64,000 nt of DNA from Alphaproteobacteria bacterium (GCA_016869285.1 VGEN01000005.1:182-64181); one strand, 5' to 3'. Shown: positions 1-16,744, counted from the first letter of the stretch. Notes: generated by a model from the sequence alone, not told the origin. Translations and numbers: made by a program.

Positions 1-152
1 CCGCGTTGACCCCGATTGCGGCGCAGCTCTCGGCTGACCGTGCTTTGGCTTAAACCCAAAACCCTGGCAATAGCTTCTTGGCAGGCACCGTCCTGGCTCA
101 GCGCATAAATCTGGCAGCGGTCCTCATAGGTAACTCGCCGGTATCGGCTCAT
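1..152 (-). CDS. IS30-family transposase, N-terminal HTH (partial; not in ORF track)
   Basis: Hand translation from ATG at 152: MSRYRRVTYEDRCQIYALSQDGACQEAIARVLGLSQSTVSRELRRNRGQRG. It carries the ST(V/I)SRE(L)RRN signature of IS30 transposases, with a GAGG RBS upstream. Confidence 0.9.
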   Translation of the reverse strand, partial: MSRYRRVTYEDRCQIYALSQDGACQEAIARVLGLSQSTVSRELRRNRGQR

Positions 153-228
153 CAGTAACCTCGCGTGAGTGCAAGAGGTTACCCCTTCGCCCTTCCATAA
201 AATTATGCACTGGCTACTTGAATCCGCG
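1..228 (-). mobile_element. IS30-family insertion sequence, left end (continues off the window)
   Basis: The minus strand from about 228 reads CGCGGATTCAAGTAGCCAGTGCATAA, which resembles IS30-family terminal repeats (recalled from memory). A transposase N-terminus follows. GC is visibly lower than in the flanking genes. The exact end is approximate. Confidence 0.75.
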
Positions 229-279
229 AAAATTAACTGGCGCTCAGAGAAGAAGGATTGCTCAAGGCGTAATCGTGCG

Positions 280-430
280 CCCTCTCCCGGCGAAGCCGGG
301 GGAGGGTTGGGGTGGGGGCCGCTCCGCGCAAGCGGAGTCGTGGCGGACAATGCCGATCTCGTTGTTGCTGCCACCCTCGCTTCGCTCGGGCCCCCACCCT
401 GCCCTCCCCCGCGCTTCGCACGGAAGAGGG
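280..430. repeat. REP/RIME-like palindromic intergenic element (family A, copy 1)
   Basis: CCCTCTCCC..GGAGGGTTGGGGTGGGGGCC..GGGCCCCCACCCTGCCCTCCCC..GAAGAGGG with nested inverted arms. The arms are near-identical to those at 60499-60638. Confidence 0.8.
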
Positions 431-445
431 TTCTCCGAACGAGGT

Positions 446-1426
446 CTACGTCCCCGCCGCCAGCACCGACTTGCGCTCGTCGGTCGGGGTGCGACCGAAG
501 ATGCGGCGATAGCATTTGGTAAAGTGCGAGGCCGAGACGAAACCGCAGGCCATCGCCACGTCCAAGATCGAGGCGCTGGTCTGGGTCAGCAGGCGCCGGC
601 CGCGCTCCAGGCGCAGCTTCACGTAGTAGCCGTGCGGCGTGGTCTTGAGATAGCGGCGGAACAGCCGTTCGAGCTGGCGCGGGCTGAGCTCGACCGCATC
701 CGCGAGCTCGTTCATATCGAGCGGCTCTTCGATCGCGCTCTCCATGCGGATGATCGTCGTGAGGAGGCGCGGATGCGAGATGCCGAGCCGCGTCTGCAGT
801 TCCATGCGCTGGCGGTCGTCATGCTCGCGGATGCGCGGGTGGATGAAGTTCTCGGCGACGCCGTTGGCGAGCGCGCGGCCCTGCTGGCCCGCGATCACGC
901 TCAGCATCATGTCGAGGGCGGCGATGCCGCCGGAACAGGTCAGCACGTTGCCGTCGATCACATAGATGCCCGAGGTGGTCATGGCGGCAGGGAACCTCTC
1001 GGCGAGCGAGGCAACGTGCTCCCAATGTACGGTGCAGCGCTTGCCGTCGAGGAGGCCGGCGCGGCCGAGGATATAGGCGCCGGTCGAGAGCGCGCCGACC
1101 TTGACGCCCGATCGCGACAGGCGCCGGAGCCAGGCGAAGACGCGCTTGTCGTCATAGCTCTCCGGATTGTACCCGGCGCAGACCAGCATCATGTCGACTT
1201 GCGCGTGCTCCTCGATGCCGCCATGGACGTCGAAGCCGATGCCGTTGCTTGCCAGCACGCGTTCGCCGTCGCGCGAGAACAAGCGCCAGCGATAGAGCGT
1301 CGACTGCTTGATCCGGTTGGCCGAGCGCAGCGGCTCCAGCGCCGCGGCGAAGGCCATCATCGAGAAGTCGGGAATGAGGAAGAAGCCGACCGTGAACACA
1401 TCGGCTTCGGCCCGGCCGCCGTCCAA
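446..1426 (-). CDS. GlxA-family transcriptional regulator (DJ-1/PfpI-like domain + AraC HTH)
   Basis: GFFLIPDFSMMAFAAALEPLRSAN N-terminus; LSPRQLERLF and VAMACGFVSASHFTKCYR HTH motifs. Start re-picked to TTG at 1426 after a GAGGGAG RBS. Confidence 0.9.
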   Translation of the reverse strand: MDGGRAEADVFTVGFFLIPDFSMMAFAAALEPLRSANRIKQSTLYRWRLFSRDGERVLASNGIGFDVHGGIEEHAQVDMMLVCAGYNPESYDDKRVFAWLRRLSRSGVKVGALSTGAYILGRAGLLDGKRCTVHWEHVASLAERFPAAMTTSGIYVIDGNVLTCSGGIAALDMMLSVIAGQQGRALANGVAENFIHPRIREHDDRQRMELQTRLGISHPRLLTTIIRMESAIEEPLDMNELADAVELSPRQLERLFRRYLKTTPHGYYVKLRLERGRRLLTQTSASILDVAMACGFVSASHFTKCYRRIFGRTPTDERKSVLAAGT

Positions 1427-1524
1427 ACGCGCGCTCCCTCTGGTCAAAATCCGACATAGGAGAGCATGCGGCGACGGAAATGGAAATCGTCTTTGAGCAA
1501 GAGGCTCGGCGGTCGGGTCTAAAG

Positions 1525-1654
1525 CCCTTCTGCCACCGGAGAAAGGCGGGGACGAGGGGCCGCGGCAGCGGCGAGACTGTGCGTGAAACGCAGAGCGGGT
1601 GAGAGAAAGCCCCTCACCCGCTCGGCTTCGCCTCGCCCCCCCGGTGGGAGAGGG
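1525..1654. repeat. REP-like palindromic element (related family B) between SBP and regulator
   Basis: CCCTTCTGCCACCGG..CCGGTGGGAGAGGG outer arms; internal perfect 11-bp inverted repeat GAGCGGGTGAG (1593-1603) / CTCACCCGCTC (1613-1623). Confidence 0.7.
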
Positions 1655-1668
1655 TCGTAGATACTGAC

Positions 1669-3351
1669 TTAAGCCTCGAGCCAGATCTCGTTGCACTCGA
1701 TGTACTGGGTCGGGTGCATCCGAAAGCCCTTCATCTTCTTGTCGCAGTAGGTGAAGACCTTGCGGAACAGCGGCTGCACCAGCGGCCCGTCATTCTGAAG
1801 GATCTCCTGCAGCCGCTTCACATGCACGCGGCGCTTCTCGACATCGGCGGTTGCTTCCGCCTGGTCGAGGACCCGGTCGAACTCGGCGTTCGAGAATCCG
1901 GACTCGTTCCAGGGAACGCCGGTGCGGTAGGCGAGCGCCAGGCACATGACGCCGAGCGGCCGGTGGGACCAGTCGCCGCACGCGAAGGGCGCGGTGTTCC
2001 AGACCTTGTTCCATTCCGGCGAGGGCAGCACTTCGAGCCGGGCCTTGATCCCGACCTCGGCCCATTGCTGGATCATCACCGTGGCGACGTCCTTCGTCCA
2101 GTTGTTGGAAACGGTGAGCGGGATCGGGATCTCGAGCCCGTTCGGATAGCCCGCCTCCGCCAGCAGCTTCTTCGCCAGCGCCTTGTCGTGCTTGAACGGC
2201 GGCATCGGCGCGTATTCCGGGTGCACCGGGGCGACATGATGATGCTCGGCGCGCGAGCCGATGTCGCCGAAGGTGATCTCGGCCACCCTGTCGTTGTCGG
2301 TCGCGTGCCGCATCGCCTTGAGGACGCGGTTGTCGTCGAAGGGCTTCACCGGATACGCCCGCGCATGAACCGTGGCGCCGGTGCCGACCGAGTAGAAGTC
2401 GAGATCGGGCAGGCGCTTCAGGATCGGCAGCTGCGAGGGGTTGGTGGCGACGATCGAATGGACCTGCTTGGAGGCCTGGGCCGCGACTTCTGCGGCCGGG
2501 TCATCGCCGAGATCGACGAAGATCACCTCATCGAGATACGGCCCCTTGCCCCAGTAGTCCTTCCGCGCCTTCATCACCGCGCGCTTCGAGATGTCGTACT
2601 CGACCAGGTCGAAGGCGCCGGTGCCGTTCATGCCGACACCGAGCTTGCCGTTTTCGGTCGGGTCGACGATGAAGAAGGGATAGTGGAAGAAGTGCTCGGG
2701 CACCGCGAGCTGCGGCGCGCGCAGGTTCATGCGGACGGTGAAGTCGTCGACCTTCTCGATCGCATTCGCATCCCAGAGCTGAGAGGACATCCGGGGCTTG
2801 CCCTGCGCGTCGTTCTCGCCCGTCGGCACATCGACAGTCATGTAGCCCTTCATCAGGCCGAGCACCGACGACCCGGTCTTCGGATCGAGCACGCTCTTGA
2901 TGTTCCAGATCACCTGGTCGGCGGTGAGCTTGCCGCCCTTGCGCCAGGTCACGTCCCGGCGGAGCTTGAGCGTCCAGGTCTTGAGGTCCTCGCTCGGCTG
3001 CCAGCTTTCGAGCAGCATCGGCCGCGTGACGTTGTCGGGGCCGGTGTTGGCAAGGTACTCGACCATCTGGCGTGCGAGATTGCTCGTCGGCACGTTGCCG
3101 GTACGATGCAGATGCGCAGTCTCGCGCACGCGCGCGCAGAGCCGGAGCGAGCCGCCCTTGCGCGGTGCGCCCTGGGCATAAGCCGCAGGCGCGACCGCGC
3201 CTTTGTCGATCTTGCCCGCGAAGGCGTAAGCGGCCGAAGCGCTGACGCCGAGCAGCGTCGCGGTACGCAGGAACTCGCGGCGGTCGCATTTGCCCTCGGC
3301 AAAGAGGGTCTTCAGCTTCGGGATGTAGGAATGCTCGCGGTCACGGGACAT
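1669..3351 (-). CDS. ABC transporter substrate-binding protein, family 5 (peptide/nickel), Tat-exported
   Basis: DRREFLRTA twin-arginine motif; PMLLESWQPSEDLKTWTLKLRRDVTW and GTGAF(D)LVEY family-5 motifs. Start re-picked to MSRDREH at 3351. Confidence 0.9.
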   Translation of the reverse strand: MSRDREHSYIPKLKTLFAEGKCDRREFLRTATLLGVSASAAYAFAGKIDKGAVAPAAYAQGAPRKGGSLRLCARVRETAHLHRTGNVPTSNLARQMVEYLANTGPDNVTRPMLLESWQPSEDLKTWTLKLRRDVTWRKGGKLTADQVIWNIKSVLDPKTGSSVLGLMKGYMTVDVPTGENDAQGKPRMSSQLWDANAIEKVDDFTVRMNLRAPQLAVPEHFFHYPFFIVDPTENGKLGVGMNGTGAFDLVEYDISKRAVMKARKDYWGKGPYLDEVIFVDLGDDPAAEVAAQASKQVHSIVATNPSQLPILKRLPDLDFYSVGTGATVHARAYPVKPFDDNRVLKAMRHATDNDRVAEITFGDIGSRAEHHHVAPVHPEYAPMPPFKHDKALAKKLLAEAGYPNGLEIPIPLTVSNNWTKDVATVMIQQWAEVGIKARLEVLPSPEWNKVWNTAPFACGDWSHRPLGVMCLALAYRTGVPWNESGFSNAEFDRVLDQAEATADVEKRRVHVKRLQEILQNDGPLVQPLFRKVFTYCDKKMKGFRMHPTQYIECNEIWLEA

Positions 3352-3613
3352 CGTGCGTCTCCCCAGGGCGCAAAGCCGGGGACGGCCACCTCTCGGCCGC
3401 CCTCCTTCTTTCTGATCCGAAAGCGTCGCCTCCGGCGCCAACCGAAAATATATCAAAGACGACGTTTCGTGGTCGAGAGGCGACCACGGTAGGCTTGCGA
3501 AGTGCGAAGCCAGAATCCGACACCGGGCCGTCGCATTCGGCTGACCGACGCAGACCACCTAGCGTAACATCCGCCGGGTTTCCGATCGGGGAAAAGGGGG
3601 GCGAGTCCCGGCG

Positions 3614-4555
3614 ATGGCGCGGCTGATTGCACAGCGCTTGTTCAACTCGGCCGTCTCGATCGCGCTTGTCTCGATCGCGCTCTTTCTTATCTTCGAGCTC
3701 TCGCCGGAGACCGTCGCCGCCGACGCCCTCGGCCAGTATTCGACGCGCGAGCAGCGCGACCTGTGGCTCGCCGCCAACGGCTATTTCGAGCCGATGCACG
3801 TCCGCTTCCTCGACTGGGTCCGCCGCTGCGTGACCGGCGAGTTCGGCCAGTCGCGCCTCTACAACCGCCCGGTCTCCGACGTGCTCGGCCCCCGCCTCGC
3901 CGCCTCGGCGACTCTCGCGGCCCTGTTCTTCTCGGTCCTGATTCCGCTGTCGCTCGGCCTCGGCATCGCCGCCGGCATGCGCGAGGGCTCGATGCTCGAC
4001 CGCGGCATCTCCTTCGCTTCGATCCTCACCACTTCGGTGCCGCCTTTCGCGAGCGCCGTGCTGCTGACTGCGATTTTCGTCTTCTGGCTCGGCCTGCTGC
4101 CGGGCACCTCGAGCATGGTCGACGGCTTTCGCTGGAAGGAGCTGATCCTGCCGGCGGCCGTGCTGCTGCTCTACGATTTCGGCTACCTTGCGCGCATCAC
4201 GCGCGCCTCGATGGCCGATGTCATGCAGACCGCCTACATCCGAACCGCGGCACTGAAGGGCCTGCCCGACTGGTGGATTATCTTCAGGCACGCGCTCAGG
4301 AACGCGCTGATTCCGCCCTTCACCGTCATCATGCTGCAGATCAACTGGCTGATCGGCGGTGTCGTGGTCGTCGAGTTCTTCTTCGCCTACAAAGGCTTCG
4401 GCTCTCTGATCCTCGAAGCCTCGCTCACCCACGACCTCTTCCTGCTGCAAGCCTGCACCGCCGTCTCGGTTCTGCTCGCCGTCGGCACCCAGACCATCGC
4501 CGACATCGGCTATGGCCTCCTCAACCCCCGCATCCGCGTGGCCGCGGCCAAATGA
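3614..4555 (+). CDS. Dpp/Opp-type ABC permease (DppB-like)
   Basis: Hydrophobic segments; YIRTAALKGL..HALRNALIP EAA loop; LIGGVVVVEFFFAYKGFG. Confidence 0.92.
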   Translation: MARLIAQRLFNSAVSIALVSIALFLIFELSPETVAADALGQYSTREQRDLWLAANGYFEPMHVRFLDWVRRCVTGEFGQSRLYNRPVSDVLGPRLAASATLAALFFSVLIPLSLGLGIAAGMREGSMLDRGISFASILTTSVPPFASAVLLTAIFVFWLGLLPGTSSMVDGFRWKELILPAAVLLLYDFGYLARITRASMADVMQTAYIRTAALKGLPDWWIIFRHALRNALIPPFTVIMLQINWLIGGVVVVEFFFAYKGFGSLILEASLTHDLFLLQACTAVSVLLAVGTQTIADIGYGLLNPRIRVAAAK

Positions 4556-5412
4556 CCGACGCGACCAAAGCGCAGACGACACCGACGCTCCGCTCCCTGC
4601 TGGCGGAGAGTCCGATCCTGATTGCCGGCCTGTCGATACTCGGGTTCTGGCTGATGGTGGCGATCCTCGCGCCGTGGATCGCGCCCTTCCGTCCCAACGA
4701 GAACCTGGTGCCGATGGCGCTGCCCGGACAACGCACGCCGGACGGCCGGCTGATGTTGCTCGGCGCCGACCATCTCGGCCGCGACGTGCTTTCGCGCATC
4801 ATTTATGGCGGCCGCACGGTGCTGACCTATGCGCCGCTGGCGACGCTCTGTGCCTACTCGGTCGGCGTCACGCTCGGGCTGATCGCCGGCTACAAGGGCC
4901 GCTGGATCGACGAGCTGCTGTCGCGCTTTGCCGACCTCGTGCTCGCCTTCCCGGTGATCGTCCTCTACATCGTCATCATCCAGAAATTCGGCGCTTCCGG
5001 GCTCAATATCCTGATCGCGGTCACGCTCGCCTCCAGCCCCGGCATCATGCGGCTGGTGCGCGGCGTCGTGCTCGATCTCCGCACCCGCGCCTATGTCTCG
5101 GCAGCGCAGATGCGCGGCGAGTCGACTTTCTACATCCTCTTCGTCGAGATCCTGCCGAACGCGCGCGGCCCGCTGATCGTCGATGCCTGCCTGCGCCTGG
5201 GATACGTCACCATCACCATCGGCACGCTGGGCTTCCTCGGCCTCGGCATCCCGCCGCCAACGCCGGATTGGGGCAGCATGATCAACGAGTCCCGCCACTT
5301 CGCCCTGGTCTTCCCGCACATGGCGGTGTTCCCGTGCCTCGCCGTCTCCTCGCTCGTGCTCGGCTTCAACCTGATCGCCGACGGCCTGCGCGAGCTGTCG
5401 CTGGCGGATTGA
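4552..5412 (+). CDS. Dpp/Opp-type ABC permease (DppC-like)
   Basis: LGADHLGRDVLSRIIYGGR; YVSAAQMRGES..EILPN; PPTPDWGSMI. ATGA overlap with the upstream gene. Confidence 0.92.
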   Translation: MTDATKAQTTPTLRSLLAESPILIAGLSILGFWLMVAILAPWIAPFRPNENLVPMALPGQRTPDGRLMLLGADHLGRDVLSRIIYGGRTVLTYAPLATLCAYSVGVTLGLIAGYKGRWIDELLSRFADLVLAFPVIVLYIVIIQKFGASGLNILIAVTLASSPGIMRLVRGVVLDLRTRAYVSAAQMRGESTFYILFVEILPNARGPLIVDACLRLGYVTITIGTLGFLGLGIPPPTPDWGSMINESRHFALVFPHMAVFPCLAVSSLVLGFNLIADGLRELSLAD

Positions 5413-7457
5413 TGACCGAGCCTCTTCTCCAGCTCGACGGTCTCTCGGTCTCCTATCGGACGCGGCGCGGACCGGTGCCGGCTGTTGTCGACGTCTCTCT
5501 CAGGCTCAACCGCGGGGAGAGCCTCGGCCTCGTCGGCGAGTCCGGCTGCGGCAAGTCGACGATCGCCTTCGCCATCATGCGCTGGCTCGCCGGGCGCGGA
5601 CAGATCGTCGGCGGCCGCGTGCTGTTCGAAGGCCGCGACATGGCCGGGATCTCGCGCGAGGAGCTGCGGCGGATCCGGGGCAAGCGCATCGCCATGGTCT
5701 TCCAGGAGGCCATGTCGGCGCTCAACCCGTGCCTGACCATCGGCGCGCAGCTGACCGAGGTGCTGAAGTTCCACGAGAATGTCGTCGGACCGGGGGCAGA
5801 GCGGCGCGCGAAGGACATGCTCGCGGAGGTCCGCATCCCCGATCCCGACCGCGTCTTCCGCGCCTTCCCGCACGAGATCTCCGGCGGCCAGCAGCAGCGT
5901 GTGGTGATCGCGATGGCGCTGCTCGCCAATCCGGCGCTGCTGCTGCTCGACGAGCCGACCACCGGCCTCGACGTCACGGTGGAGGCCAGCGTCGTCCGCC
6001 TGATCGCCGAGATCAGCCGGCGCTTCGGCACCTCGCTCCTCTACATCTCGCATAACCTCGCGCTGATCTCGCGCGTCTGCGAGCGGATCGCCGTCATGTA
6101 TGCCGGCGAAATCGTCGAAGAAGGCCCGACCCGACGTATCCTGACCGCGCCCATCCACCCCTACACGCGCGGCCTGATCCGTTGCCTGCCGGAATCGGGC
6201 GCCGACAAGATCGCGCGACCGCTCTCGCCGATCCCCGGTCAGATCCCGGCGCCATGGGAACGTGCCGCCGGGTGCTTCTTCCAGCCGCGCTGCGGCTATG
6301 CGAGGGACGGGCTCTGCGACGCCTCGCATCCGCCGCTCATCGGCTACGGCAAGGGCTCGACCGTGCGCTGCCTCCGCGCGAGCGAGATCGAGCCCGGCCG
6401 CATCGACGCCGTCGCCGGTGAGGCGCCGCCCGCAGCAGACGGCGTCGCCGTCTCCGTGGATCGGCTCAGCAAGGACTACCGGCTGACACCACCGGGCCTG
6501 CGCGGCCTCCTCCCCTTCGCCGATCCGCTCAGAATTCGCGCCAACGATCACCTGACCTTCAACGCGGCCTCCGGCCGGACGCTTGCCATCGTCGGCGAGT
6601 CAGGCTGCGGCAAGTCGACCTTCGCGCGCGTCCTGACCGGCCTCGAGCGTGCCACCGGCGGCCGTATCGAAGTCGCTGGCACCGATCTCGCGCAGCTTTC
6701 GGTCATCGATCGCAGCCGCGAGCAGCTTCGCGCGCTGCAGATGGTGTTCCAGAACCCCGACGAGACCCTGAATCCGAGCTATCGCGTCGGCCGCCAGATC
6801 GCACGGGTCGCCAGCCGCCTGCTCGGCCTTGGCCGCAGGGAGCGGGCGCAGCGCGTCCGCGACCTCTTCGCCGAGATCCGCCTCCCGGCCGGCATCGCCG
6901 ACCGCAAGCCGCGGCACCTCTCCGGCGGACAAAAGCAGCGGATCGCCATCGCCCGCGCTTTCGTCGGCAATCCGGAGATCGTCGTCGCCGACGAGCCGGT
7001 CTCGGCGCTCGACGTCTCGGTGCGCGCCGCCGTGACTCAGCTCCTGATGGAGATCCAGCGCGCGCATGGCACGACGCTGATCCTGATCAGCCACGACTTG
7101 GCTCTCGTTCGATATGTCGCCGACACGGTCGTCGTCATGTATCTCGGCCAGGTGATGGAGGTCGGCACGACGAGCCAGGTGTTCTCGGCACCGCACCACC
7201 CCTATACCGAAGCGCTGCTCGCGGCACAGCCCAAGCTCGAAGACGACCGCGGTCTGCACGCGCCGGTCGAGGGCGAGACGCCGAGCCCGCTCGATCCGCC
7301 GCAGGGCTGCCCCTTCCATACGCGCTGCCCGCGCAAGGTCGGGACGATCTGCGAGATCTCGCGTCCGTCCGAGCAGGTGACGCCGGCCGGACACCGCATG
7401 GCCTGCCACATCCCGATGGACGAGCTCGTCCGCGCCCAAGAGAGAGCGACGACATGA
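5412..7457 (+). CDS. Fused double ABC ATPase (DppD/DppF-like)
   Basis: Two GESGCGKST Walker A motifs, ISGGQQQR and LSGGQKQR signatures, DEP Walker B motifs and two C-terminal Cys-rich tails. Start at 5412 overlaps the dppC stop. Confidence 0.93.
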   Translation: MTEPLLQLDGLSVSYRTRRGPVPAVVDVSLRLNRGESLGLVGESGCGKSTIAFAIMRWLAGRGQIVGGRVLFEGRDMAGISREELRRIRGKRIAMVFQEAMSALNPCLTIGAQLTEVLKFHENVVGPGAERRAKDMLAEVRIPDPDRVFRAFPHEISGGQQQRVVIAMALLANPALLLLDEPTTGLDVTVEASVVRLIAEISRRFGTSLLYISHNLALISRVCERIAVMYAGEIVEEGPTRRILTAPIHPYTRGLIRCLPESGADKIARPLSPIPGQIPAPWERAAGCFFQPRCGYARDGLCDASHPPLIGYGKGSTVRCLRASEIEPGRIDAVAGEAPPAADGVAVSVDRLSKDYRLTPPGLRGLLPFADPLRIRANDHLTFNAASGRTLAIVGESGCGKSTFARVLTGLERATGGRIEVAGTDLAQLSVIDRSREQLRALQMVFQNPDETLNPSYRVGRQIARVASRLLGLGRRERAQRVRDLFAEIRLPAGIADRKPRHLSGGQKQRIAIARAFVGNPEIVVADEPVSALDVSVRAAVTQLLMEIQRAHGTTLILISHDLALVRYVADTVVVMYLGQVMEVGTTSQVFSAPHHPYTEALLAAQPKLEDDRGLHAPVEGETPSPLDPPQGCPFHTRCPRKVGTICEISRPSEQVTPAGHRMACHIPMDELVRAQERATT

Positions 7458-9160
7458 TCCGGAGCGAGATGATCGCCACCCGTACCGAGGTCTCAGGAAC
7501 CAGGGGGGTGTGCACGGGCGGCCATCCGGCCGAGGCCGCTGCCGGCATCGCCATGATCGAAGCCGGCGGCAACGCCATCGACGCGTTGGTCGCCGCGGCC
7601 TTCGTCGGCTTTGTCGTCGAGCCTTCCTCCTGCGGGCTCGGCGGGTACGGTCACCTCGCCGTCTGGCTCGGCAAGGAAAAGCGCTTCGTCACCTTCGATC
7701 ACTATGTCCGGGCACCGGGTGCCGCCCGGCCGGACATGTTCGAGATCGATCGCACCAAGCCCATGAAATACTACGGCTTCCCCTACACGGTCGGCATGAA
7801 GGCGGAGCAGGGGCCGCTGGCGCCGGCGGTGCCGGGAGCGGTCGCCGGGCTCTGCGATGCACACCGCCTGCTCGGCAGGCTGCCTTTGTCTCAGGTGCTG
7901 GAGCCGGCGATCGCCGAGGCCGACGCCGGCATCGAGGTGACATGGCAGCTTCTTCTGCCGATCGGCGACCGGCTTGCCGCAATCCAGGCGCTGCCGGATA
8001 CCGCCGCCTGGCTCCTGCGCGGCAACATGCCGCCCAAGGCCGCGGGCCAGCTCGGGTCCGGCGATCGCCTCGATGGCACCGATCTCGCCAAGACGCTGCG
8101 GCGCATCGCCGCCGAAGGCAAGCGCGGCTTCTATGACGGCTTTGTTGCCCAGGCGATCGAGCGCGCCTGCGTGAGCCAGGGAGGAGTCCTCACCGCCGCC
8201 GATCTCGCCGCGTACAGGACGCGCATCCTGGAGGAGAAGCCGACACGCTATCGCGGCCTCGGCTGCAACACGGCCTACGACCAGGTGACCTATGAGGCGC
8301 TGAACATCCTGCAGTGCTTCGACTTGAAGGCGCTCGGCGCGGACAGCCTCGCCTTCCGCCATCTCGTCGCCGAGGCGTTGGCCTGCGGCTTCATCGACAG
8401 CATGACCCATTACGGCGACCCGGATTTCGAGCGCGCCCCTGTCGAAGGCCTCGCCAGCCCGGAGTTCGGCCACATGCGCGCCCGGCAGCTCCGCATGGAC
8501 AAGGCGCTGCCGCGCCCGGTCGCCGCCGCCGATCCCTGGCCCTTCGACAATTCGGCCGAGCGGCCGACGCGGATCGCAGGCGAGCCCGGGATGGCGAAGC
8601 TCTCCGGCACCAGCCAGATGGCGGCGGCCGATGCCGAAGGCAATGTCTGCGCTCTGATCACCAGCCTCACCAGCGGTTTCGGCTCGCTGATGCTGGTGCC
8701 GGGCACCGGCGTCGTCCTCAACAACTCGATGCAGAACTTCGACCCGCGCCCCGACCAGGCGAATTGCATCAAGCCCGGCAAGATGCCGATTTTCGCTGCG
8801 CCGTCGCTTGTCGCCGAGAAGGACGGCCGCGCCGTCTTCGCAGGATGCGGCTCCGGCGGCTATCGCATCACCACGGGCGTGCTGCATGCCTTCCTGCACG
8901 CAACCGATTTCGGCATGGGGCCGCAAGCCGCCATCGACGCGCCGCGCGTCCACTGCCAGGGCCAGGAGACCTTTGTCGACCCGCGCATTCCGGCCGAGCT
9001 CCGCGACGGCCTTGCCGCCCTCGGCCATAAAGTCGTGGTGCAGGCGGAGTCGCCGGGGCTGAACGCCTTCGGCCGCGTCAACGCCATCACCGTCGCAAAG
9101 GACGGCACCTTGCGCGCCGGCACCGGCCCCGCCTGGGCGACGGCGGCAGCAGCGTGCTGA
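7454..9160 (+). CDS. Gamma-glutamyltransferase-family Ntn hydrolase, atypical (copy 1)
   Basis: GGNAIDALVAAAF, VEPSSCGLGG, AVPGAVAG, GTSQ (putative Thr nucleophile), GSGG, AAIDAPRVH. Confidence 0.85.
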   Translation: MIRSEMIATRTEVSGTRGVCTGGHPAEAAAGIAMIEAGGNAIDALVAAAFVGFVVEPSSCGLGGYGHLAVWLGKEKRFVTFDHYVRAPGAARPDMFEIDRTKPMKYYGFPYTVGMKAEQGPLAPAVPGAVAGLCDAHRLLGRLPLSQVLEPAIAEADAGIEVTWQLLLPIGDRLAAIQALPDTAAWLLRGNMPPKAAGQLGSGDRLDGTDLAKTLRRIAAEGKRGFYDGFVAQAIERACVSQGGVLTAADLAAYRTRILEEKPTRYRGLGCNTAYDQVTYEALNILQCFDLKALGADSLAFRHLVAEALACGFIDSMTHYGDPDFERAPVEGLASPEFGHMRARQLRMDKALPRPVAAADPWPFDNSAERPTRIAGEPGMAKLSGTSQMAAADAEGNVCALITSLTSGFGSLMLVPGTGVVLNNSMQNFDPRPDQANCIKPGKMPIFAAPSLVAEKDGRAVFAGCGSGGYRITTGVLHAFLHATDFGMGPQAAIDAPRVHCQGQETFVDPRIPAELRDGLAALGHKVVVQAESPGLNAFGRVNAITVAKDGTLRAGTGPAWATAAAAC

Positions 9161-9183
9161 GAACGAGGATGGCCTCTGACGCC

Positions 9184-9228
9184 TTCATGCCCCCTCTCCC
9201 GTGCGAAGCGCGGGGGAGGGGGCATGAG
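9184..9228. repeat. Strong hairpin / minimal REP between the two GGT-like genes
   Basis: TCATGCCCCCTCTCCCG-TGCGAAGCG-CGGGGGAGGGGGCATGA, sharing the CCCTCTCCC..GGGAGGG arms of family A. Confidence 0.75.
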
Positions 9229-9237
9229 GACGGTTTC

Positions 9238-10917
9238 GTGCTGAAGCCCGGCTCGGTCTTCCTCAGCCGCACGCCAATCGCCGGCCGCAAGGGCGCGGTC
9301 GCCTGCGGGCATCAGGAAGCGGCGGAGCTTGGCCTCGATGCGCTAAGGCGCGGGGGCAACGCCATCGATGCAGCGATTGCCGGCGCCTTCGCCTCCTTCG
9401 TCGTCGAGCCGCAGATGTGCGGCATCGGCGGCCATGGCCGCCTGTCGGTCTATCTCGCCGACAGAGGGCAGGCGATCGGCATCGACCACTTCATCCGCGC
9501 GCCCAAGGCGGCGACGCCGGAAGTGTACGCGGCGGCGCTAACGCGCTGGCGCAACGCCGGCTGGGGCGGCACCGAGGGCGCGATCAACACCACCGGCCAC
9601 CTTTCGGTCGGCATCCCCGGCACCGTTGCCGGCCTTTGGGAGGCGCATCGCCGCTTCGCCAGGCTCCCCTGGCGCTCGCTGGTCGGCCCGGCGATCGAGC
9701 TCGCCCGTGCCGGCATTGCCGCCGATGCGCGCCTGACCCTTTCCATTGCCGGCCGCACCGGGGAGATCCGCCAGCATCCGGAAGCAGCGGCGCTACTGCT
9801 GCCGGACAATGCGCCGCCGCGACCGGCAAACGCCGGCGGCGCGCTTCATCGCTTCGACTTCTCCGACATGGCAAAGACGTTGGAGGCTATCGCCGAAAAG
9901 GGCGCTGCCGCCTTCTATGACGGCCCGCTCGCCGCCGCGATCGATGCCGAGATGAGAAAGGCCGGCGGGTTGCTCACCGCCGAGGATTTGGCCGGCTACA
10001 AGCCCGACACCTTCCAGCAGCCCTGGTACGAGTATCGCGGCCGCGGCTATGTCACCTGCGGCGATCTGATATTCGCCGAGACGCTCAACATCCTCGAGCG
10101 CTTCGACCTCGGCAGCCTCGGTCAGGGAAGCGCCGAATCCTTCCACCTGATCGCCGAGGCGCTGGCGCAGTCTTTCGCCGACAGTTTCGCGCACGCCGCC
10201 GACCCCCGGCACCTGAAGGCACCGCTCGAAGGACTGGCGAGCAAGGCCTTCGCCGCTGTGCAGGCGGCGCGCATCCGCACGGATCGCGCGCAACGGACGT
10301 ACGCCCCGGGCGATCCCTGGCCGCATCAGGGCCCGACGCCCTCGGTCCCGCCTCCGCCCTTCGAAGGCACGACCCAGATCGCCGCCGCCGACGCCGACGG
10401 CAACATGGCGAGCCTGATTACCAGCCTCGGCAGCGCCTTCGGCTCTCTGGTTCTGATCCCCGGCACCGGCGTCTTCCTCGGCAATGCCATGCAGTGGTTC
10501 GACCCGACACCGGGGCGGGCCAACTCGGTCGGTCCGGGACGCATGCCGCTCTATGCCGCGCCGGTCGCGATCTTCCGCGAAGGAGGACGAGCGCTCGGCG
10601 CCATCGCCGGCTCCGGCGGCTACCGGATCCAGCCCGCGGTCCTCTTCGCGGCAATCAACCGCCTCGACTACGGCGTTGATCCCCAACGTGCGATCGACCT
10701 GCCGCGAATTCACACCGAAGGTGAAGGGCTGGAGGTCGACACGCGCATCGCCGCATCCGTAACCGAGCGGCTGAAAGCGCTGGGCCATTGCGTGCGGCCC
10801 GTCGACGGCTCCGGCTTGCCTACGGCCTTCGGCCGTCCTTCGGCCGTGTGGCGTGCCGCCGATGGCAGCCTGATTCCGGCCAGCGACGCCCGCTCCGGCG
10901 GCGTCGCCGCCTTCTGA
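9238..10917 (+). CDS. Gamma-glutamyltransferase-family Ntn hydrolase, atypical (copy 2)
   Basis: GGNAIDAAIAGAF, VEPQMCGIGG, GIPGTVAG, GTTQ, GSGG, AIDLPRIH. Start re-picked to GTG at 9238 after GAGGA. Confidence 0.85.
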   Translation: MLKPGSVFLSRTPIAGRKGAVACGHQEAAELGLDALRRGGNAIDAAIAGAFASFVVEPQMCGIGGHGRLSVYLADRGQAIGIDHFIRAPKAATPEVYAAALTRWRNAGWGGTEGAINTTGHLSVGIPGTVAGLWEAHRRFARLPWRSLVGPAIELARAGIAADARLTLSIAGRTGEIRQHPEAAALLLPDNAPPRPANAGGALHRFDFSDMAKTLEAIAEKGAAAFYDGPLAAAIDAEMRKAGGLLTAEDLAGYKPDTFQQPWYEYRGRGYVTCGDLIFAETLNILERFDLGSLGQGSAESFHLIAEALAQSFADSFAHAADPRHLKAPLEGLASKAFAAVQAARIRTDRAQRTYAPGDPWPHQGPTPSVPPPPFEGTTQIAAADADGNMASLITSLGSAFGSLVLIPGTGVFLGNAMQWFDPTPGRANSVGPGRMPLYAAPVAIFREGGRALGAIAGSGGYRIQPAVLFAAINRLDYGVDPQRAIDLPRIHTEGEGLEVDTRIAASVTERLKALGHCVRPVDGSGLPTAFGRPSAVWRAADGSLIPASDARSGGVAAF

Positions 10918-10994
10918 CCGATGCCCGTCGCTTTGCGGCACGTTCCGGCCACCCACGCGACGTGAGATGAACCGACCCACCAAGAGGAATTGAG

Positions 10995-12341
10995 ATGGCC
11001 CTTCCCGCCAAAGCCAAATATGTCGTCATCGGTGCCGGCGTGCACGGCTTGAGCACCGCCTACCACCTGGCGACCGAGCTCGAATCGAGCGGGCGCGGCT
11101 CGGGCAAGGATATCGTCATCCTCGACAAGACCGGGATAGCTGCCGGCGCCTCCGGCATCGCCTGCGGCGTCATCCGCAACAACTACTTCCAGCCGGCGAT
11201 GCGCGAGCTGATGGCCGAGTGCGTCGCGGTCTGGGAGAGCGACCCGAAAGCCTTCAGCTACCACCCGGTCGGCTACATGCAGATCTCTCCTGAAGTGATG
11301 CATGAGAATGTCGGCACGATCGCGAAGCAGCAGAAGGACATCGGCTACGACTCTGTTTTCATTGAGGGCGAGGTAGACTGCACGAAGTACATGAAGGGCC
11401 TGTTCGACGATTGGCAGGCCAAGGGCATCACTTCGGTCCTGCACGAGAAAAAGGGCGGCTACGCCAATAACCGCGCCTCGATGTACGGGCTGGCGAAGAA
11501 GGCCGAGGCCAAGGGCGTCCGGATCGTCGCTCCCACGAAGGTCACAGGCTTCAAGTTCGGATCGAACAGCAAGGCAGTTTCGGCGGTCGAGACCGATCGC
11601 GGCACCATCGCCTGCGACTATGTCGTGGTCGGCGTCGGCCCCTGGATCAATCAGATCTGGGGGATGCTGGAGCTGCCGAAGAGCGTCGACATCAAGGGCC
11701 GGGACGGCAAGATGCACAAAGGCGTCGGCATGTGGACCTATTGGTGCCTGGAGGAAGGCACGCTCGGCGTCGATCCCAAATACGGGCTCATGAACGACGG
11801 CAGGATGGGCCCGGTGATGCATGTCGACACCGACGCGCCGCTCCACTCCGATGAGGACGGGTCCCTCATCACCGACAAGCTCTGGGGCATCTACTACAAG
11901 CCCGACTTCAACTTCGACGGCATCCAGGGCGGCGCCATGCCGTACAAGGTGGAGACGCCCGTCGACCAGGTGAAGATCGACCCCTATGGGCCTGACTCGC
12001 CGGAGTTCATCGTCGATGCGAACTTCGCGCATATGTTCACCTCGGCGCTCGCCTTCTGCCAGAAGCGCTACTCTGGGCAGGCGCACAAGTGGAAGCACGA
12101 GCCCTCGGGCGGTCTCGGCTGCTTCACCCCGGACAGCTTCCCGGTTTTTGATGTCTTCCGCGAGAACGTCTATGTGCTCGCCGATTCGAACCATGGCTAT
12201 AAGATGATCGCGGTCGGCAAGCTCGCCGCCGGAGAGATCGTCAGCGGCCAGAAGAATCGGCTATTGGAACCCTTCCGGATCTCGCGCTTTCCAGAAGGCA
12301 AGCTGCATCCGGTGTCGAATTCTCCATTCCCTTGGAGCTGA
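10995..12341 (+). CDS. FAD-dependent oxidoreductase, DAO/sarcosine-oxidase-beta-like
   Basis: VVIGAGVHGLSTAYHL dinucleotide-binding motif; GASGIACG; FTPDSFPV; SNHGYKM..GKL. Confidence 0.85.
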   Translation: MALPAKAKYVVIGAGVHGLSTAYHLATELESSGRGSGKDIVILDKTGIAAGASGIACGVIRNNYFQPAMRELMAECVAVWESDPKAFSYHPVGYMQISPEVMHENVGTIAKQQKDIGYDSVFIEGEVDCTKYMKGLFDDWQAKGITSVLHEKKGGYANNRASMYGLAKKAEAKGVRIVAPTKVTGFKFGSNSKAVSAVETDRGTIACDYVVVGVGPWINQIWGMLELPKSVDIKGRDGKMHKGVGMWTYWCLEEGTLGVDPKYGLMNDGRMGPVMHVDTDAPLHSDEDGSLITDKLWGIYYKPDFNFDGIQGGAMPYKVETPVDQVKIDPYGPDSPEFIVDANFAHMFTSALAFCQKRYSGQAHKWKHEPSGGLGCFTPDSFPVFDVFRENVYVLADSNHGYKMIAVGKLAAGEIVSGQKNRLLEPFRISRFPEGKLHPVSNSPFPWS

Positions 12342-12342
12342 C

Positions 12343-13737
12343 ATGACCAGCCGCGCCGTCGCCTTCACCCGCAAGCTCCGCTTCCAGGACCTGCCGGAGA
12401 CGGTGGTCGAGCAGGCCAAGCTCTGCCTCGTCGATCTGATGGCAGCGGCAGCCGCGGGCATGGAAACCGCGATGTCGCGGATCATCCGCAAGCACGCGGC
12501 GGAAGTGTTCGGCGGCGGCAAGGCCGGCGTTCGCATGCTGCTCGACGGCAGACGCACGAGCTGGCCGGGCGCGGCGCTGGCCGGCGGCATCACCATCGAT
12601 GCCTTCGACTCCCATGACGGCCATGTGCTGACCAAAGGCCATGCCGGCGTCGCTATCCTGCCGACCCTGCTGGCGCTGGCCGACGGCGAGACGAGAGTCT
12701 CCGGCCGCGAGTTCCTCACCAGCCTCGTGATGGGCTACGAGATCGCGATCCGTGCCGGCATCGCCACGCACCGGACCTGCAAGGACTATCACACCTCCGG
12801 TTCCTGGAACGCGCTCGGGGCCGCTGCGGTGGTCGCCCGCTGGCTCAGGCTGTCGCCGGCGGTGACGCGCGAAGCGCTCGGCATCGCCGAATATCACGGG
12901 CCGCGCAGCCAGATGATGCGCTGCATCGACTTCCCTACCATGGTCAAGGACGGCTCCGGCTGGGGGGCGATGGCCGGCGTCAGCGCCGCGCTGCTGGCGC
13001 GCGACGGTTTCACCGGGGCGCCGTCGCTGGTCTCCGAAGCCGAGGATGTCGCCGACCTCTGGGCCGACCTCGGCACGCGCTGGCGGATCATGGAGATGTA
13101 CTTCAAGCCCTATCCGGTCTGCCGCTGGGCGCAGCCGCCGATCACCGCGAGTCTCGGACTCCTGGCGCAGCACGGGATCAAGGGCGCCGACGTAACGGGG
13201 ATCGAGGTCGAGACCTTCCACAATGCCGTCAGGCTCGCGACCCGCGCCCCGAAGACGACCGAGGAAGCGCAGTACAGCCTCCCCTTCCCGGTCGCCGCCG
13301 CGATCGTCCATGGCCGCGTCACCGCGCGCGAGGTCGACGGTGCTGGATTGCGGCACCCGCGCGTGCTCAAGCTCGCCCAGGAGATGACGCTGACCGAGGA
13401 CCTGGCACTTACCGCGGAGTTTCCGGCCCGCCGCATCGCCCGCGTGAAGCTCACGACCAAGGACGGCCGCGTACTAGCTTCCGAGCCGACCGAGGCTCTC
13501 GGAGATCCCGAGCGCCCGCTCGGGCCCGAACGCATCCTTGCCAAGTACCGCGAAACCGCCGAGCCGGTGCTCGGCGCCGCTCGTGCCGGGAAGATCCTCA
13601 AGGAGGCGATGCAAATGGATGGCGCCAAGGCCGATGCCCGCGCCTTCGTCGACCTGGCGCTGGCGCCGGTGAAAGCTCAGCGTGCGACAAAGCGCCCCAG
13701 CAACAGCCGCACGCTCGCCATCGCTGCCGACGACTGA
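12343..13737 (+). CDS. MmgE/PrpD-family protein
   Basis: AKLCLVDLMAAAAAG; DAFDSHDGH..GHAG; FKPYPVCRWAQ; AQYSLPF; GDPERPL. Confidence 0.88.
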   Translation: MTSRAVAFTRKLRFQDLPETVVEQAKLCLVDLMAAAAAGMETAMSRIIRKHAAEVFGGGKAGVRMLLDGRRTSWPGAALAGGITIDAFDSHDGHVLTKGHAGVAILPTLLALADGETRVSGREFLTSLVMGYEIAIRAGIATHRTCKDYHTSGSWNALGAAAVVARWLRLSPAVTREALGIAEYHGPRSQMMRCIDFPTMVKDGSGWGAMAGVSAALLARDGFTGAPSLVSEAEDVADLWADLGTRWRIMEMYFKPYPVCRWAQPPITASLGLLAQHGIKGADVTGIEVETFHNAVRLATRAPKTTEEAQYSLPFPVAAAIVHGRVTAREVDGAGLRHPRVLKLAQEMTLTEDLALTAEFPARRIARVKLTTKDGRVLASEPTEALGDPERPLGPERILAKYRETAEPVLGAARAGKILKEAMQMDGAKADARAFVDLALAPVKAQRATKRPSNSRTLAIAADD

Positions 13738-13743
13738 CAGTCC

Positions 13744-13893
13744 CTATTCGGCCGGCCCCTTCGACGGCGCAGCGGCACCCTGATCGAGCATCCGGTCACG
13801 GTCGGCCATCCAGCCGTGGAAAATCCAGACCAGGCCGAACATCGTCAGAAGAGTGAAGATCATGACCATGATCAGCAGAAACAGCTCATGCAT
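13744..13893 (-). CDS. Small single-pass membrane protein, 49 aa (not in ORF track)
   Basis: MHELFLLIMVMIFTLLTMFGLVWIFHGWMADRDRMLDQGAAAPSKGPAE*, with a GAGGAGG RBS 4 nt upstream. It fills an otherwise empty intergenic gap. Confidence 0.7.
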   Translation of the reverse strand: MHELFLLIMVMIFTLLTMFGLVWIFHGWMADRDRMLDQGAAAPSKGPAE

Positions 13894-13955
13894 GAACGCC
13901 TCCTCAACAATTTGAGAAGGCTCTCGCCGCGCGGGCCGATCGTCATTGACTCAGA

Positions 13956-14455
<500 letters not shown>

Positions 14456-15346
14456 GATGGTCGGCACATGGTCCGGCATGACCATGTATTTGTACCCGGC
14501 ATCCCGATAGAGACGGAGCGAGGCCGGCATGTCCATGTCGTCGTCGTCGGTAAAGGTCTCCATGAAGTCGAGCTTGCGCCCGCAGATGTTGAGGAAGTGG
14601 ACGTTGAAGATCTTGCCGCGGCTGCCGAACCAGCGGATGACCTCCCCCACCTCCGATTTCGGGTCGTCCAGCATCTCGCCGATCGTGCCCTGGCAGAAAT
14701 TGCGGCCGTGATAGGGGCTCGCCTCGATCTCGACGAAGCGCTTCAGGCCCTCGACCGTACCGAGAACGCGCGTGACGCCGCGCCAGCCGGGTGGCGTGTA
14801 GGGATCGTGCGGATGGCAAGCGAGCCGCACCTTGCTGGATGTCGCGACCGGCACGACGCGCTTCAGGAAGTATTCGATCCGCGCCCAGTTCTCCTCGGGA
14901 TGGACGATGCCGGCGACGCCCGGCGGCGCCTTCTGATCGGCCTCCGCCCAGCGGAAGGACTCGTTGCGCGATCCTCCGCGCCCTAGGGAGGGCTTGGTAC
15001 GCGGGATGCCAATGATGTTGAGATTGTACTTGGCGGCCGGGATTCCGGCTTTTCCGATCCGCTCGATCAGCGCGCAGATCGAGTCGATCTGGCGGTCGCG
15101 ATCGGGGCCGGCGGTCAGGATGTCTGGGCTGTCCTGCTTCTCGATCGGCAGCGAGTTCATCGGCAGCTGCACCATGTCGAGGACGAGGCCGAAGCTCTCG
15201 ACCTTTTCGCGGTGCCTGTTCAGAACGTCGAGCGACCAGTGATGCGGATTCCCCTCGGGGTCGGCGCAGATGTGGCGCACGCCGAGCTGTGCCCAAACGC
15301 GATAGTCGCTATCGTCGCGAGCCTTGACCTGGGTTCCGAGATACAC
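14456..15346 (-). pseudogene. Mannonate dehydratase (UxuA)-family gene, 3'-truncated and fused in frame to the ABC fragment
   Basis: [12 protein letters not shown].., [40 protein letters not shown] motifs. The sequence switches to ABC ATPase immediately after DHVPTI. GTG start at 15346 follows GGGAGGGG. Confidence 0.75.
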
Positions 15347-15480
15347 CGCCCCTCCCCGCCGCTCCGCTTGCCGCCGAGGATAGCGGACATGCCCGAGGCC
15401 CGGCACCGGGCTTTCGGACCGTTGCAAGGCCTGCACGGATGGTAGGCTAGGATCGACGCCCGTTGACACAGGGGAGCCCC

Positions 15481-16185
15481 ATGGATGTAGAGGCGCTGGT
15501 CTTCGATGTCTTCGGCACCTGCGTCGACTGGCGCGGCACCATCATCCGCGAGGCGGAGCGATGGGCGCGCGCGTATGGCCGCCCCATCGACGGCGCCGGC
15601 CTCGCCGATGCCTGGCGTGCCGCCTATCAGCCGGCGATGGAGGAGATCCGCAGCGGCCGGCGGCCTTTCGCCCATCTCGATACGCTCCATCGCGAGAACC
15701 TCGACCGGATTGCCGCCCGCTTCGGTCTTTCCGGCCTCGACGAAGCGACGCTGTCTCATATCAACCGTGTCTGGCATCGGCTCGATCCCTGGCCGGACAC
15801 GGTGCCGGGACTCCGGCGGCTGCGCGCGCGCTTCCTCCTGGCGCCGCTCTCCAATGGCGGCGTCGGCTTGCTGACGCGCATGGCCAAGCGCGCCGGCCTG
15901 CCCTGGGACCTGATCCTCTCCGGCGAGCTGTTCGAGGGCTACAAGCCCGAGCCCAAGGTCTATCTCGGCGCCGCGCGGCTTCTCGACCTGCCGCCGCAGA
16001 AGGTGATGATGGTCGCTGCGCACAATGGCGACCTTGGCGCCGCCGCGGCGCTCCGCCTGCGAACCGCCTTCGTGCGCCGGCCGACCGAGCACGGCCCGGC
16101 CCAGACGACCGATCTCACACCCGCGCAAAAGTGGGATTACGCCGTCGACAGCATGGAAGACCTGGCCGACGCGCTCGGCTGCTAA
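15481..16185 (+). CDS. Haloacid dehalogenase type II (HAD superfamily)
   Basis: [36 protein letters not shown]. Confidence 0.9.
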
Positions 16186-16739
16186 CCGAGCTCGAACTCC
16201 GCGAGCGCGCGCGTCACTGCCTGGTCGACGATATCGCCGATCGTCTTGGGCTGGCGCGCGAAATCCGGCACGGGCGGCATCACCGTGGCGCCGTAGCGGG
16301 TCACGCGCTCGATCAGCTCGATATGCCCCAGGTGCAGCGGCGTTTCGCGCAGCATCAGCACGACCCGACGACGTTCCTTCAGGCAGACATCGGCAGCGCG
16401 AACGACGAGGTTATCGTCGTAGGAGTTGGCGATGCCGCTCAGGGTCTTGATCGAGCACGGCACCACCAGCATTCCGAGCGTGCGGAAGGAACCGCTCGAC
16501 ATCGAGGCGCCGATGTCCTTGTAGCTGTGCACGACCGAGGCGAGCTTGCGGACCTGAGCGGCGCTGCGATCGGTCTCCTCCTCGATGGTGCGGAGCGCCG
16601 AGGGCGAAACGATCAGATGTGTCTCGACGAGCTGCTTCTTCAACAGCTCCAGCGCACGGATGCCGAAGATGGCGCCCGAGGCGCCGGTGATCGCGACGAT
16701 AAGGCGCCTGGGCGCCGGCGCTTCCGCCTTCCTCGCCAT
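16182..16739 (-). CDS. ubiX: UbiX-family flavin prenyltransferase (short C-terminus)
   Basis: VAITGASGAIFG, SSGSF, VPCSIKTLSGIA, RAADVCLKERR, RETPLH. Confidence 0.9.
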   Translation of the reverse strand: MARKAEAPAPRRLIVAITGASGAIFGIRALELLKKQLVETHLIVSPSALRTIEEETDRSAAQVRKLASVVHSYKDIGASMSSGSFRTLGMLVVPCSIKTLSGIANSYDDNLVVRAADVCLKERRRVVLMLRETPLHLGHIELIERVTRYGATVMPPVPDFARQPKTIGDIVDQAVTRALAEFELG

Positions 16740-16744
16740 GCCGC

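Follow-up and report, generated by a model that had tools for sequence, protein, structure and literature searches.

Dpp/Opp-type importers are co-transcribed with a cytoplasmic amide hydrolase in E. coli iaaA-gsiABCD (ybiK-yliABCD), whose hydrolase is an Ntn hydrolase, and in B. subtilis dpp, an operon led by the D-aminopeptidase gene dppA. Opine systems combine family-5 substrate-binding proteins (SBPs) with DAO-type oxidases and with lactam- or amide-opening enzymes. Here, we describe a locus of nine genes at positions 446 to 13,737 of a 64,000-nucleotide stretch of DNA, hereafter the window (GCA_016869285.1, VGEN01000005.1:182-64181), which belongs to a 331-contig metagenome-assembled genome (MAG) of a freshwater, uncultured alphaproteobacterium. 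Like iaaA-gsiABCD and B. subtilis dpp, the locus pairs an importer with a putatively cytoplasmic hydrolase; unlike them, it carries two GGT-fold hydrolases with a rebuilt pocket, after which come a flavin amine oxidase and an MmgE/PrpD-family protein. It differs from opine operons in lacking a C-N lyase or OoxAB pair, and the MAGs that carry it are from free-living lake and sludge bacteria, not from plant-associated ones.

We suggest that the locus serves the inducible uptake and catabolism of an amide-containing, N-substituted amino-acid-type compound of fresh water (N-alkyl or N-acyl, possibly N-methylated), a general scheme to which sequence comparisons lead us to give an even chance. The locus is an uncharacterised version of a known type of catabolic operon and, judged by profile scores, stands outside every equivalog family tested. 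An earlier interpretation of the window (the sequence-only reading) could match the gene set to no known pathway, and neither could we. Gene families were assigned by Pfam and NCBIfam profile searches and start sites by a GC3-minus-GC2 gene caller, which gave the following map.

446-1447, minus strand: GlxA/GATR-type AraC regulator of 333 amino acids (Pfam DJ-1/PfpI and HTH_18; start from GC3)
1448-1668: spacer of 221 bp from the SBP stop to the regulator start (from the sequence; homology to close relatives is interrupted)
1669-3351, minus strand: family-5 (Dpp/Opp-type) SBP with Tat signal DRREFLRTATLLG (Pfam SBP_bac_5, E 1e-63)
3352-3613: divergent control region (alignment of 7 orthologous regions)
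3614-4555, plus strand: dppB, DppB/NikB-like ABC permease (Pfam BPD_transp_1)
4552-5412, plus strand: dppC, DppC-like ABC permease (Pfam BPD_transp_1 and OppC_N)
5409/5412-7457, plus strand: dppDF, fused double ATPase of 681-682 amino acids (two ABC_tran and two oligo_HPY stretches)
7454-9160, plus strand: ggt1, leaderless GGT-fold Ntn hydrolase (Pfam PF01019, E 2.5e-101)
9161-9237: insert of 77 bp between ggt1 and ggt2 (comparison with relatives)
9238-10917, plus strand: ggt2, leaderless GGT-fold Ntn hydrolase (Pfam PF01019, E 5.6e-107)
10995-12341, plus strand: DAO447, DAO/SoxB-like flavoenzyme of 448 amino acids (DAO model, residues 9-226 only)
12343-13737, plus strand: MmgE/PrpD-family protein (two Pfam domains, superfamily level only)

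Every gene family named in the sequence-only reading is present where it was placed, as judged by the list of open reading frames (ORFs), Pfam and NCBIfam. The tight operon structure that it described is likewise borne out: the dppB/dppC, dppC/dppDF and dppDF/ggt1 junctions are 4-nt overlaps and a single nucleotide separates the FAD gene (DAO447) from MmgE, while gaps of 77 nt precede both ggt2 and DAO447. The same reading had the regulator diverging from dppB, which proved incorrect, since this gene lies on the strand of the SBP gene, downstream of it and 221 bp off, and may have its own promoter in that spacer. The regulator ORF extends to 1696, but its alignment to the GbdR model starts only at residue 98. 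For ggt2, a GTG at 9154 is a possible alternative start; we chose the GTG at 9238 because orthologues are 559 amino acids long and DNA homology resumes at 9237, and because the ggt1 and ggt2 calls of one relative (L023) overlap by 7 nt where the 77-bp insert stands here. None of the genus relatives compared has this insert.

Both GGT-fold proteins match PF01019 and have the nucleophilic Thr and the Gly-Gly oxyanion pair of that fold, and HMMER alignments to E. coli GGT (2e0w) reveal that Thr391 and G483-G484 are retained in both, with Thr409 replaced by Ser. In the same alignments, six positions that we take to bind the alpha-amino and alpha-carboxyl groups of the gamma-glutamyl moiety are changed in ggt1/ggt2: R114 to Y/F, N411 to T/G, Q430 to S/A, D433 to N/W, S462 to F/Y and S463 to A/A. 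The resulting signatures, Y-R...T-S-T-S-Q-N-F-A-GG-Y for ggt1 and F-R...T-S-G-A-Q-W-Y-A-GG-Y for ggt2, are almost invariant among the 33 ggt1-type sequences (down to 52% identity) and 13 ggt2-type sequences (down to 48%) from the fetched loci, and this near-invariance argues for selected specificities rather than decay. The two proteins are 44% identical to each other. Both miss the TIGR00066 cut-off of 357.85 bits (ggt1, 285.4; ggt2, 306.1), and a search of their N-termini found no hydrophobic leader or signal peptide.

We therefore read ggt1 and ggt2 as probable cytoplasmic, self-processing-type Ntn amidohydrolases without a gamma-glutamyl substrate pocket. Their identity as glutathione or gamma-glutamyl hydrolases is rejected on the six replaced pocket residues and the TIGR00066 scores, and the genes that the sequence-only reading called ggt encode GGT-fold proteins rather than gamma-glutamyltransferases. 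A precedent for such a change is found in the class IV cephalosporin (glutaryl-7-ACA) acylases (PDB 2nlz; E. coli GGT D433N), which are GGT-derived and no longer need the alpha-amino group. Like these acylases, ggt1 and ggt2 have the GGT fold, and ggt1 has Asn at the position of Asp433; unlike them, both proteins also lack the alpha-carboxylate ligands Arg114, Ser462 and Ser463. The match to 2nlz is distant (E 6e-52) and weaker than that to the true GGT 4y23. In all, 691 homologues match at E <= 1e-100, and none of the best 120 of these 691 comes from a named isolate. Homologues carry the source label "gamma-glutamyltranspeptidase/glutathione hydrolase"; if our reading is true, the GGT/glutathione hydrolase labels in the databases would be wrong for several hundred environmental proteins.

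The Tat-exported family-5 SBP, DppB, DppC and the fused DppDF form a peptide/opine-type ABC importer. A twin-arginine motif lies in the SBP N-terminus, MSRDREHSYIPKLKTLFAEGKCDRREFLRTATLLGVSASAAYAFAG. A solved-structure search gave no close relative of the SBP (best 5u4o, E 5e-34), and all NCBIfam matches of dppB lie under their cut-offs. Unlike in the Gsi system, the SBP and the ATPase score far under the glutathione importer models, as does the permease (GsiB, 79 vs 594 bits; GsiA, 426 vs 1077; GsiC, 147 vs 463). A paralogous importer is encoded on another contig of the same genome (C1), with an SBP 49% identical and permeases and a fused ATPase 46-55% identical to those described here. It is placed between two MttB genes, RACo, a pterin-binding methyltransferase, two DMGDH genes, soxBDAG, MR_MLE, M24 and a BHMT-like gene. 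We note that this part of C1 (~18000-56000) is a large methylated-amine (betaine-demethylation) island, which also holds an MTHFR-like gene, a 2OG oxygenase and a DMSP-lyase-like cupin, and that its M24 gene is creatinase-like.

Conservation was followed by a ggt1 scan with one genome per species, which gave 37 loci, all in MAGs from lakes, sludge and oceans, and by tblastn comparison of the nine locus proteins with these loci. The full nine-gene order is kept in five other MAG species (L023, L025, L026, L027 and L043) at 76-96% protein identity; three of the five contigs are same-genus contigs, and all five species appear to belong to the same genus. In a sixth species (L024), the contig ends inside ggt2. 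The MmgE gene was found in 9 of the 11 genomes of the genus. Nine genes in the same order in five other species indicate that the arrangement is not due to chance. DNA synteny with the three relatives compared (L023, L026, L043) spans ~440 to 14462, and within the spacer between SBP and regulator genes homology to close relatives breaks between 1488-1493 and 1654-1670.

Outside these close relatives, sub-modules are found. L033, L035 and L046 have the sbp-dppBCDF-ggt1-ggt2 set but not the remaining genes, and L028 and L034 have sbp-ggt1-ggt2. Only the importer and ggt1 are present in L037 (Hyphomicrobiales MAG) and in L044 and L054 (both Actinomycetota MAGs), as well as on two metagenome contigs read with Pfam tables (L082, L083). 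The cross-phylum unit is thus the importer with ggt1, to which ggt2 is added in Alphaproteobacteria; regulator, DAO447 and MmgE complete the importer/GGT unit only in close relatives. With the full set confined to close relatives and sub-modules elsewhere, we see the locus as a lineage-specific assembly of modules. The neighbourhood conservation that the sequence-only reading proposed to check holds for nine genes in order in five other species, and beyond close relatives for sub-modules only.

Other gene neighbourhoods link ggt1 to the last gene of the locus. A member of the MmgE clade lies within 10 kb of ggt1 in three further arrangements: ggt1-TonB receptor-TPR sulfotransferase-MmgE-LysR-ggt2 in Gammaproteobacteria MAGs (L031/L032), MmgE adjoining the SBP gene in an Acetobacteraceae MAG (L033), and OpuAC ABC-DAO (398 amino acids)-BHMT-like-MmgE-ggt1 in a Chloroflexi MAG (L036). 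Since the clade is carried by only 19 of 401 representative genomes of the class (~5%), this recurrence is far above chance. Elsewhere, the neighbours of ggt1 include DMGDH-MttB-M24-ECH-CaiB together with MR_MLE and Amidohydro_1 (L028), Amidohydro_1 and MR_MLE (L034), an OoxA-like flavoprotein (L033), DAO and a BHMT-like gene (L055), a Pro_racemase-family gene (L037), and a StcD/DgcA-like flavoenzyme with M24 (L050, L051, L056). Other epimerases and amine oxidases near ggt1 thus fill the roles held here by MmgE and DAO447. Separately, the TonB receptor of L031/L032 hints that Gram-negatives lacking the Dpp importer may depend on an outer-membrane transporter for the substrate.

The flavoenzyme DAO447 matches the DAO model and SoxB structures over residues 9-226 only. 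No full-length DAO alignment was obtained, and the sarcosine oxidase models TIGR01373 (74.8 vs 529 bits) and TIGR01377 (40.7 vs 480 bits) are missed by a wide margin. The gene is single-copy in this genome; its family counts at least 8000 proteins, which are 73-93% identical among the 120 matches listed. We read six of its genomic contexts. In four of them (L018, Zavarzinia sp.; L060, L061 and L062, metagenome-derived contigs), DAO447 is the first gene of a six-gene operon, followed by a glutamine synthetase (GS)-like ligase of 490 amino acids, a class-II GATase, a GXGXG protein, a GltB-like FMN protein and a 130-amino-acid ORF, with a GntR gene divergent. The ligase falls below the type III GS cut-off (TIGR03105), and the other proteins give only weak, distant matches; the operon is therefore distinct from the canonical pathway, a sister of gmaS-mgsABC. 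It has a single-subunit oxidase where the N-methylglutamate pathway has mgdABCD. The canonical mgsABC-gmaS of this genome lies on another contig (C11). In the remaining two contexts, DAO447 adjoins a GlxA regulator 54% and 45% identical to the one described here.

DAO447 is 73-77% identical to the proteins that head the sister operon, and therefore probably shares their function; we infer this to be oxidation of an N-alkyl-glutamate-like secondary amine. Beyond this likeness, the locus differs from the N-methylglutamate pathway (gmaS, mgsABC, mgdABCD) in that it has no GS-like or Mgs-like genes and in that its flavoenzyme has one subunit only, with no SoxA/D/G-type partners. Literature searches on N-methylglutamate, gmaS and FAD oxidoreductases returned nothing relevant, and a broader search on the N-methylglutamate pathway returned papers that, by their titles and abstracts, deal only with the canonical pathway. 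The DAO447 gene has a GC content of ~62% versus 65-70% in the surrounding genes, and its protein is 92-94% identical across close relatives versus 76-90% for its neighbours, a pattern that may reflect either very strong constraint or a separate, recent acquisition.

For the MmgE/PrpD protein, the nearest solved relatives are iminodisuccinate epimerase (2hp0/2hp3, E 4e-22) and IRG1 (E ~1e-22). The former, from Agrobacterium tumefaciens BY6, is the closest, though remote, and acts on an N-substituted polycarboxylic amino acid. An assignment as the 2-methylcitrate dehydratase PrpD was rejected (26.6 vs 950 and 24.7 vs 575 bits; no prpBC nearby). Homologues at ~60% identity occur in the cultured Hypericibacter, Ostreiculturibacter, Rhodoligotrophos and Paralimibaculum. 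The context is DAO446-GlxA-MttB-CN_hydrolase-MmgE-Peptidase_S15-OpuAC ABC in Hypericibacter, GlxA-OpuAC ABC-CN_hydrolase-ACAD-CoA ligase-MttB-ECH-MmgE in Ostreiculturibacter, and Dpp ABC-GATase-IclR-Amidohydro_2-DUF6282-MmgE in an Anaerolineae MAG. Across 19 places fetched outside the genus, MttB adjoins MmgE in three (L071, L077, L079), and a fourth (L080) has a similar MttB-DMGDH pair, although the MmgE match there was not recovered by the gene call. Further neighbours in the 19 places are DMGDH, an OYE-type demethylase, an OpuAC/CoA-ligase/ACAD/ECH set, GlxA regulators, and hydantoinase A/B with an Asp/Glu-racemase-like protein. In most named, annotated contexts, the clade lies near an amide- or lactam-opening enzyme. 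From these neighbourhoods we conclude that it belongs with the breakdown of amino acids that are methylated or carry other N-substituents. Literature searches combining MmgE with MttB and betaine, or the PrpD family with GGT and GlxA, found nothing relevant.

The regulator combines a GATase1-like DJ-1/PfpI domain (PF01965) with an AraC helix-turn-helix (PF12833/PF00165), and its solved-structure search gave domain-level matches only. It scores 373.7 bits against the GbdR model NF052371 (cut-off 480) and, by these profiles, is a GATR but not GbdR itself. This architecture and the strong partial match to the GbdR model resemble the Pseudomonas GATR amine operons (GbdR, CdhR, SouR, ArgR; PMC5806209). 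PMC5806209 reports the half-site form GGTCGC-N15 for CdhR and likens it to the GbdR, SouR and ArgR sites. Likewise, a direct repeat of this type runs towards the SBP gene, beside a transporter/catabolic operon: GGTCGC (3484-3479)-N15-CGTCGT (3463-3458), at which binding is predicted only. Alignment of the seven orthologous divergent regions reveals that both CGAC cores are invariant and exactly 21 bp apart. Upstream of dppB, at 3516-3541, there is another conserved block, TCCGAC-N7-CGTCGCATT(T/C)GGCTG. Both the direct repeat and this block are candidate operators. Unlike in Pseudomonas, the regulator falls short of the GbdR model, as scored above, and gbcAB, dgcAB, sox and cdh have no relatives among the target genes. 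The regulator gene is single-copy in the genome and accompanies the operon in each of the five complete orthologous loci; this co-conservation in close relatives and the conserved direct repeat suggest that the GlxA regulator may control the locus. A promoter and terminator scan gave counts no higher than in shuffles, with one sigma-70-like match (3476-3447, minus strand), no more than expected by chance.

Taken together, the parts suggest the following pathway: (I) the SBP with DppB/DppC/DppDF would import the substrate; (II) ggt1 would cleave an amide bond of the imported compound, a role we assign because importer and ggt1 recur together across phyla; (III) ggt2 would cleave a second amide or lactam, or act on a second stereo- or regio-isomer; (IV) DAO447 would oxidise the C-N bond of the secondary amine thus formed (most likely an N-alkyl-glutamate-like acid), because its near-orthologues are so placed in GS-like/MgsABC-like operons; and (V) the MmgE/PrpD protein would epimerise (dehydration being less likely) an N-substituted di- or tricarboxylic amino acid to give one oxidisable stereoisomer. 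The GbdR-like GATR regulator may sense the substrate or an intermediate and act through the direct repeat conserved in the divergent region. Candidate substrates are an N2-substituted glutamine or its lactam, an opine-like iminodiacid amide, and the amide of a methylated amino acid. The sequence-only reading had proposed import, deacylation, oxidative dealkylation and dehydration/epimerisation; gene content, the general logic and the N-substituted-amine neighbourhoods uphold this outline, whereas the GGTs lack the gamma-glutamyl pocket and the full set is not widely conserved. The N-substituted-amine theme itself comes from ggt1 and MmgE relatives beside MttB, DMGDH, BHMT-like, StcD/DgcA-like, OpuAC and GlxA genes. 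Other specific substrates were considered but lack support: poly-gamma-glutamate, microcystin fragments and NAGGN, none of which accounts for all parts; siderophores, for which a TonB receptor is present only in L031/L032 and the parts are not all explained; and creatine or ectoine, for which M24 neighbours occur only in other genomes and the parts are again not all explained.

Several observations weigh against this pathway. The nine-gene set is limited to close relatives, and many ggt1 loci are without any oxidase or epimerase (L082, L083). A single shared substrate is not proven, because unrelated contexts are numerous for each of DAO447, MmgE and ggt1. Given its differing GC content and the 77-nt gap before it, DAO447 may have been added later. 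As a quaternary-amine demethylase is missing from the locus, the link to betaine is indirect. Finally, the sigma-70-like match puts the proximal half-site inside its spacer, an arrangement that suits repression as well as activation.

Two alternative explanations were weighed. The locus may be a mosaic without a single substrate, in which an importer/GGT-like amidase operon stands beside independent amine-oxidase and MmgE/PrpD genes and the regulator controls only a part. Confinement of the full set to close relatives, the GC content, preceding gap and unusual conservation of DAO447, the separate occurrence of DAO447, MmgE and ggt1 in many other contexts, and the rearrangement breakpoints that flank the locus would all fit such an origin. 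However, order and tight spacing were held in six species while the flanks changed, ggt1 and MmgE are also linked, independently and in other gene orders, in further phyla, DAO-type oxidases recur beside ggt1 (L036, L055, L028, L033), and FAD gene and MmgE are only 1 nt apart. We regard a mosaic as improbable, a little more so than the second explanation, catabolism of peptides with D-amino acids or of N-acyl-D-amino acids, such as peptidoglycan or cyanobacterial-peptide fragments with iso-linked acidic residues, which we also think unlikely. There, the importer would take up the fragments, the GGT-fold pair would cut iso or N-acyl amides, the MmgE/PrpD protein would be an epimerase, and DAO447 would be a D- or N-methyl-amino-acid dehydrogenase. 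L028 and L034 indeed join sbp-ggt1-ggt2 to an MR_MLE racemase/epimerase and an Amidohydro_1 enzyme of 477-486 amino acids, the classic pairing of N-acyl-amino-acid racemase and D-aminoacylase. The Pro_racemase-family gene of L037, an epimerase as the nearest solved relative of MmgE, D-amino-acid dehydrogenases among DAO-family enzymes, and host MAGs from lakes and sludge point the same way. Against this stand the GbdR-like regulator, whose closest relatives sit with DAO447, and the main context of DAO447, an N-methylglutamate-pathway-like operon and not D-amino-acid genes. Moreover, the MmgE clade lies mostly with MttB, DMGDH and OpuAC, and a gamma-D-glutamyl bond would need the lost alpha-amino/alpha-carboxyl pocket.

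A third explanation, Gsi-type salvage of glutathione or gamma-glutamyl peptides with two GGTs that free glutamate, is already largely refuted, and we hold it to be very improbable. The Pfam G_glu_transpept match of both ggt genes, an importer of the Dpp family that is like GsiABCD in family only, and the annotation of homologues as gamma-glutamyltranspeptidase/glutathione hydrolase would favour it. In contrast, the six gamma-glutamyl-binding residues are replaced in both paralogues and in their orthologues, both GGTs score under TIGR00066 and have no signal peptides, the GsiB and GsiA models are far from reached, and DAO447 and MmgE would be left without a role.

The surroundings of the locus differ from those in its relatives. 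On the left, the synteny end at ~440 adjoins an N-terminal fragment of an IS30-type transposase (HTH_38; window 3-515, minus strand), which abuts the regulator stop codon; genus relatives carry two acyl-CoA dehydrogenase genes there. On the right, the end at 14462 falls inside a relic ABC ATPase, of which only the 3' part is left, joined to a fragment of UxuA (mannonate dehydratase; 13956-15469, minus strand). The ATPase is full-length in relatives, and the stop in synteny indicates that a neighbouring second Dpp-like transporter was deleted or rearranged in this genome. Protocatechuate-branch genes follow in 16182-19722 (CMD/PcaC-like, 16745-17176; Lyase_1/PcaB-like, 17118-18464; others) and are unrelated to the locus.

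In sum, the locus links atypical GGT-fold hydrolases, a 447-amino-acid DAO family and an MttB-associated MmgE/PrpD clade to methylated-amine and N-alkyl-amino-acid metabolism. Tentatively, and with the contrary appearing clearly more probable to us, ggt1 and ggt2 may represent two undescribed GGT-superfamily specificity classes, found almost only in uncultured bacteria, which together with the importer, an N-alkyl-amino-acid oxidase and an iminodisuccinate-epimerase-like enzyme would constitute a novel pathway acting on a dissolved-organic-nitrogen compound that is common but has escaped notice. The locus offers concrete enzymes to express and screen, and no new kind of biological system. If the proposed scheme is true, an importer-linked amidase family in lake, sludge and marine bacteria would point to an unidentified, nitrogen-rich substrate.

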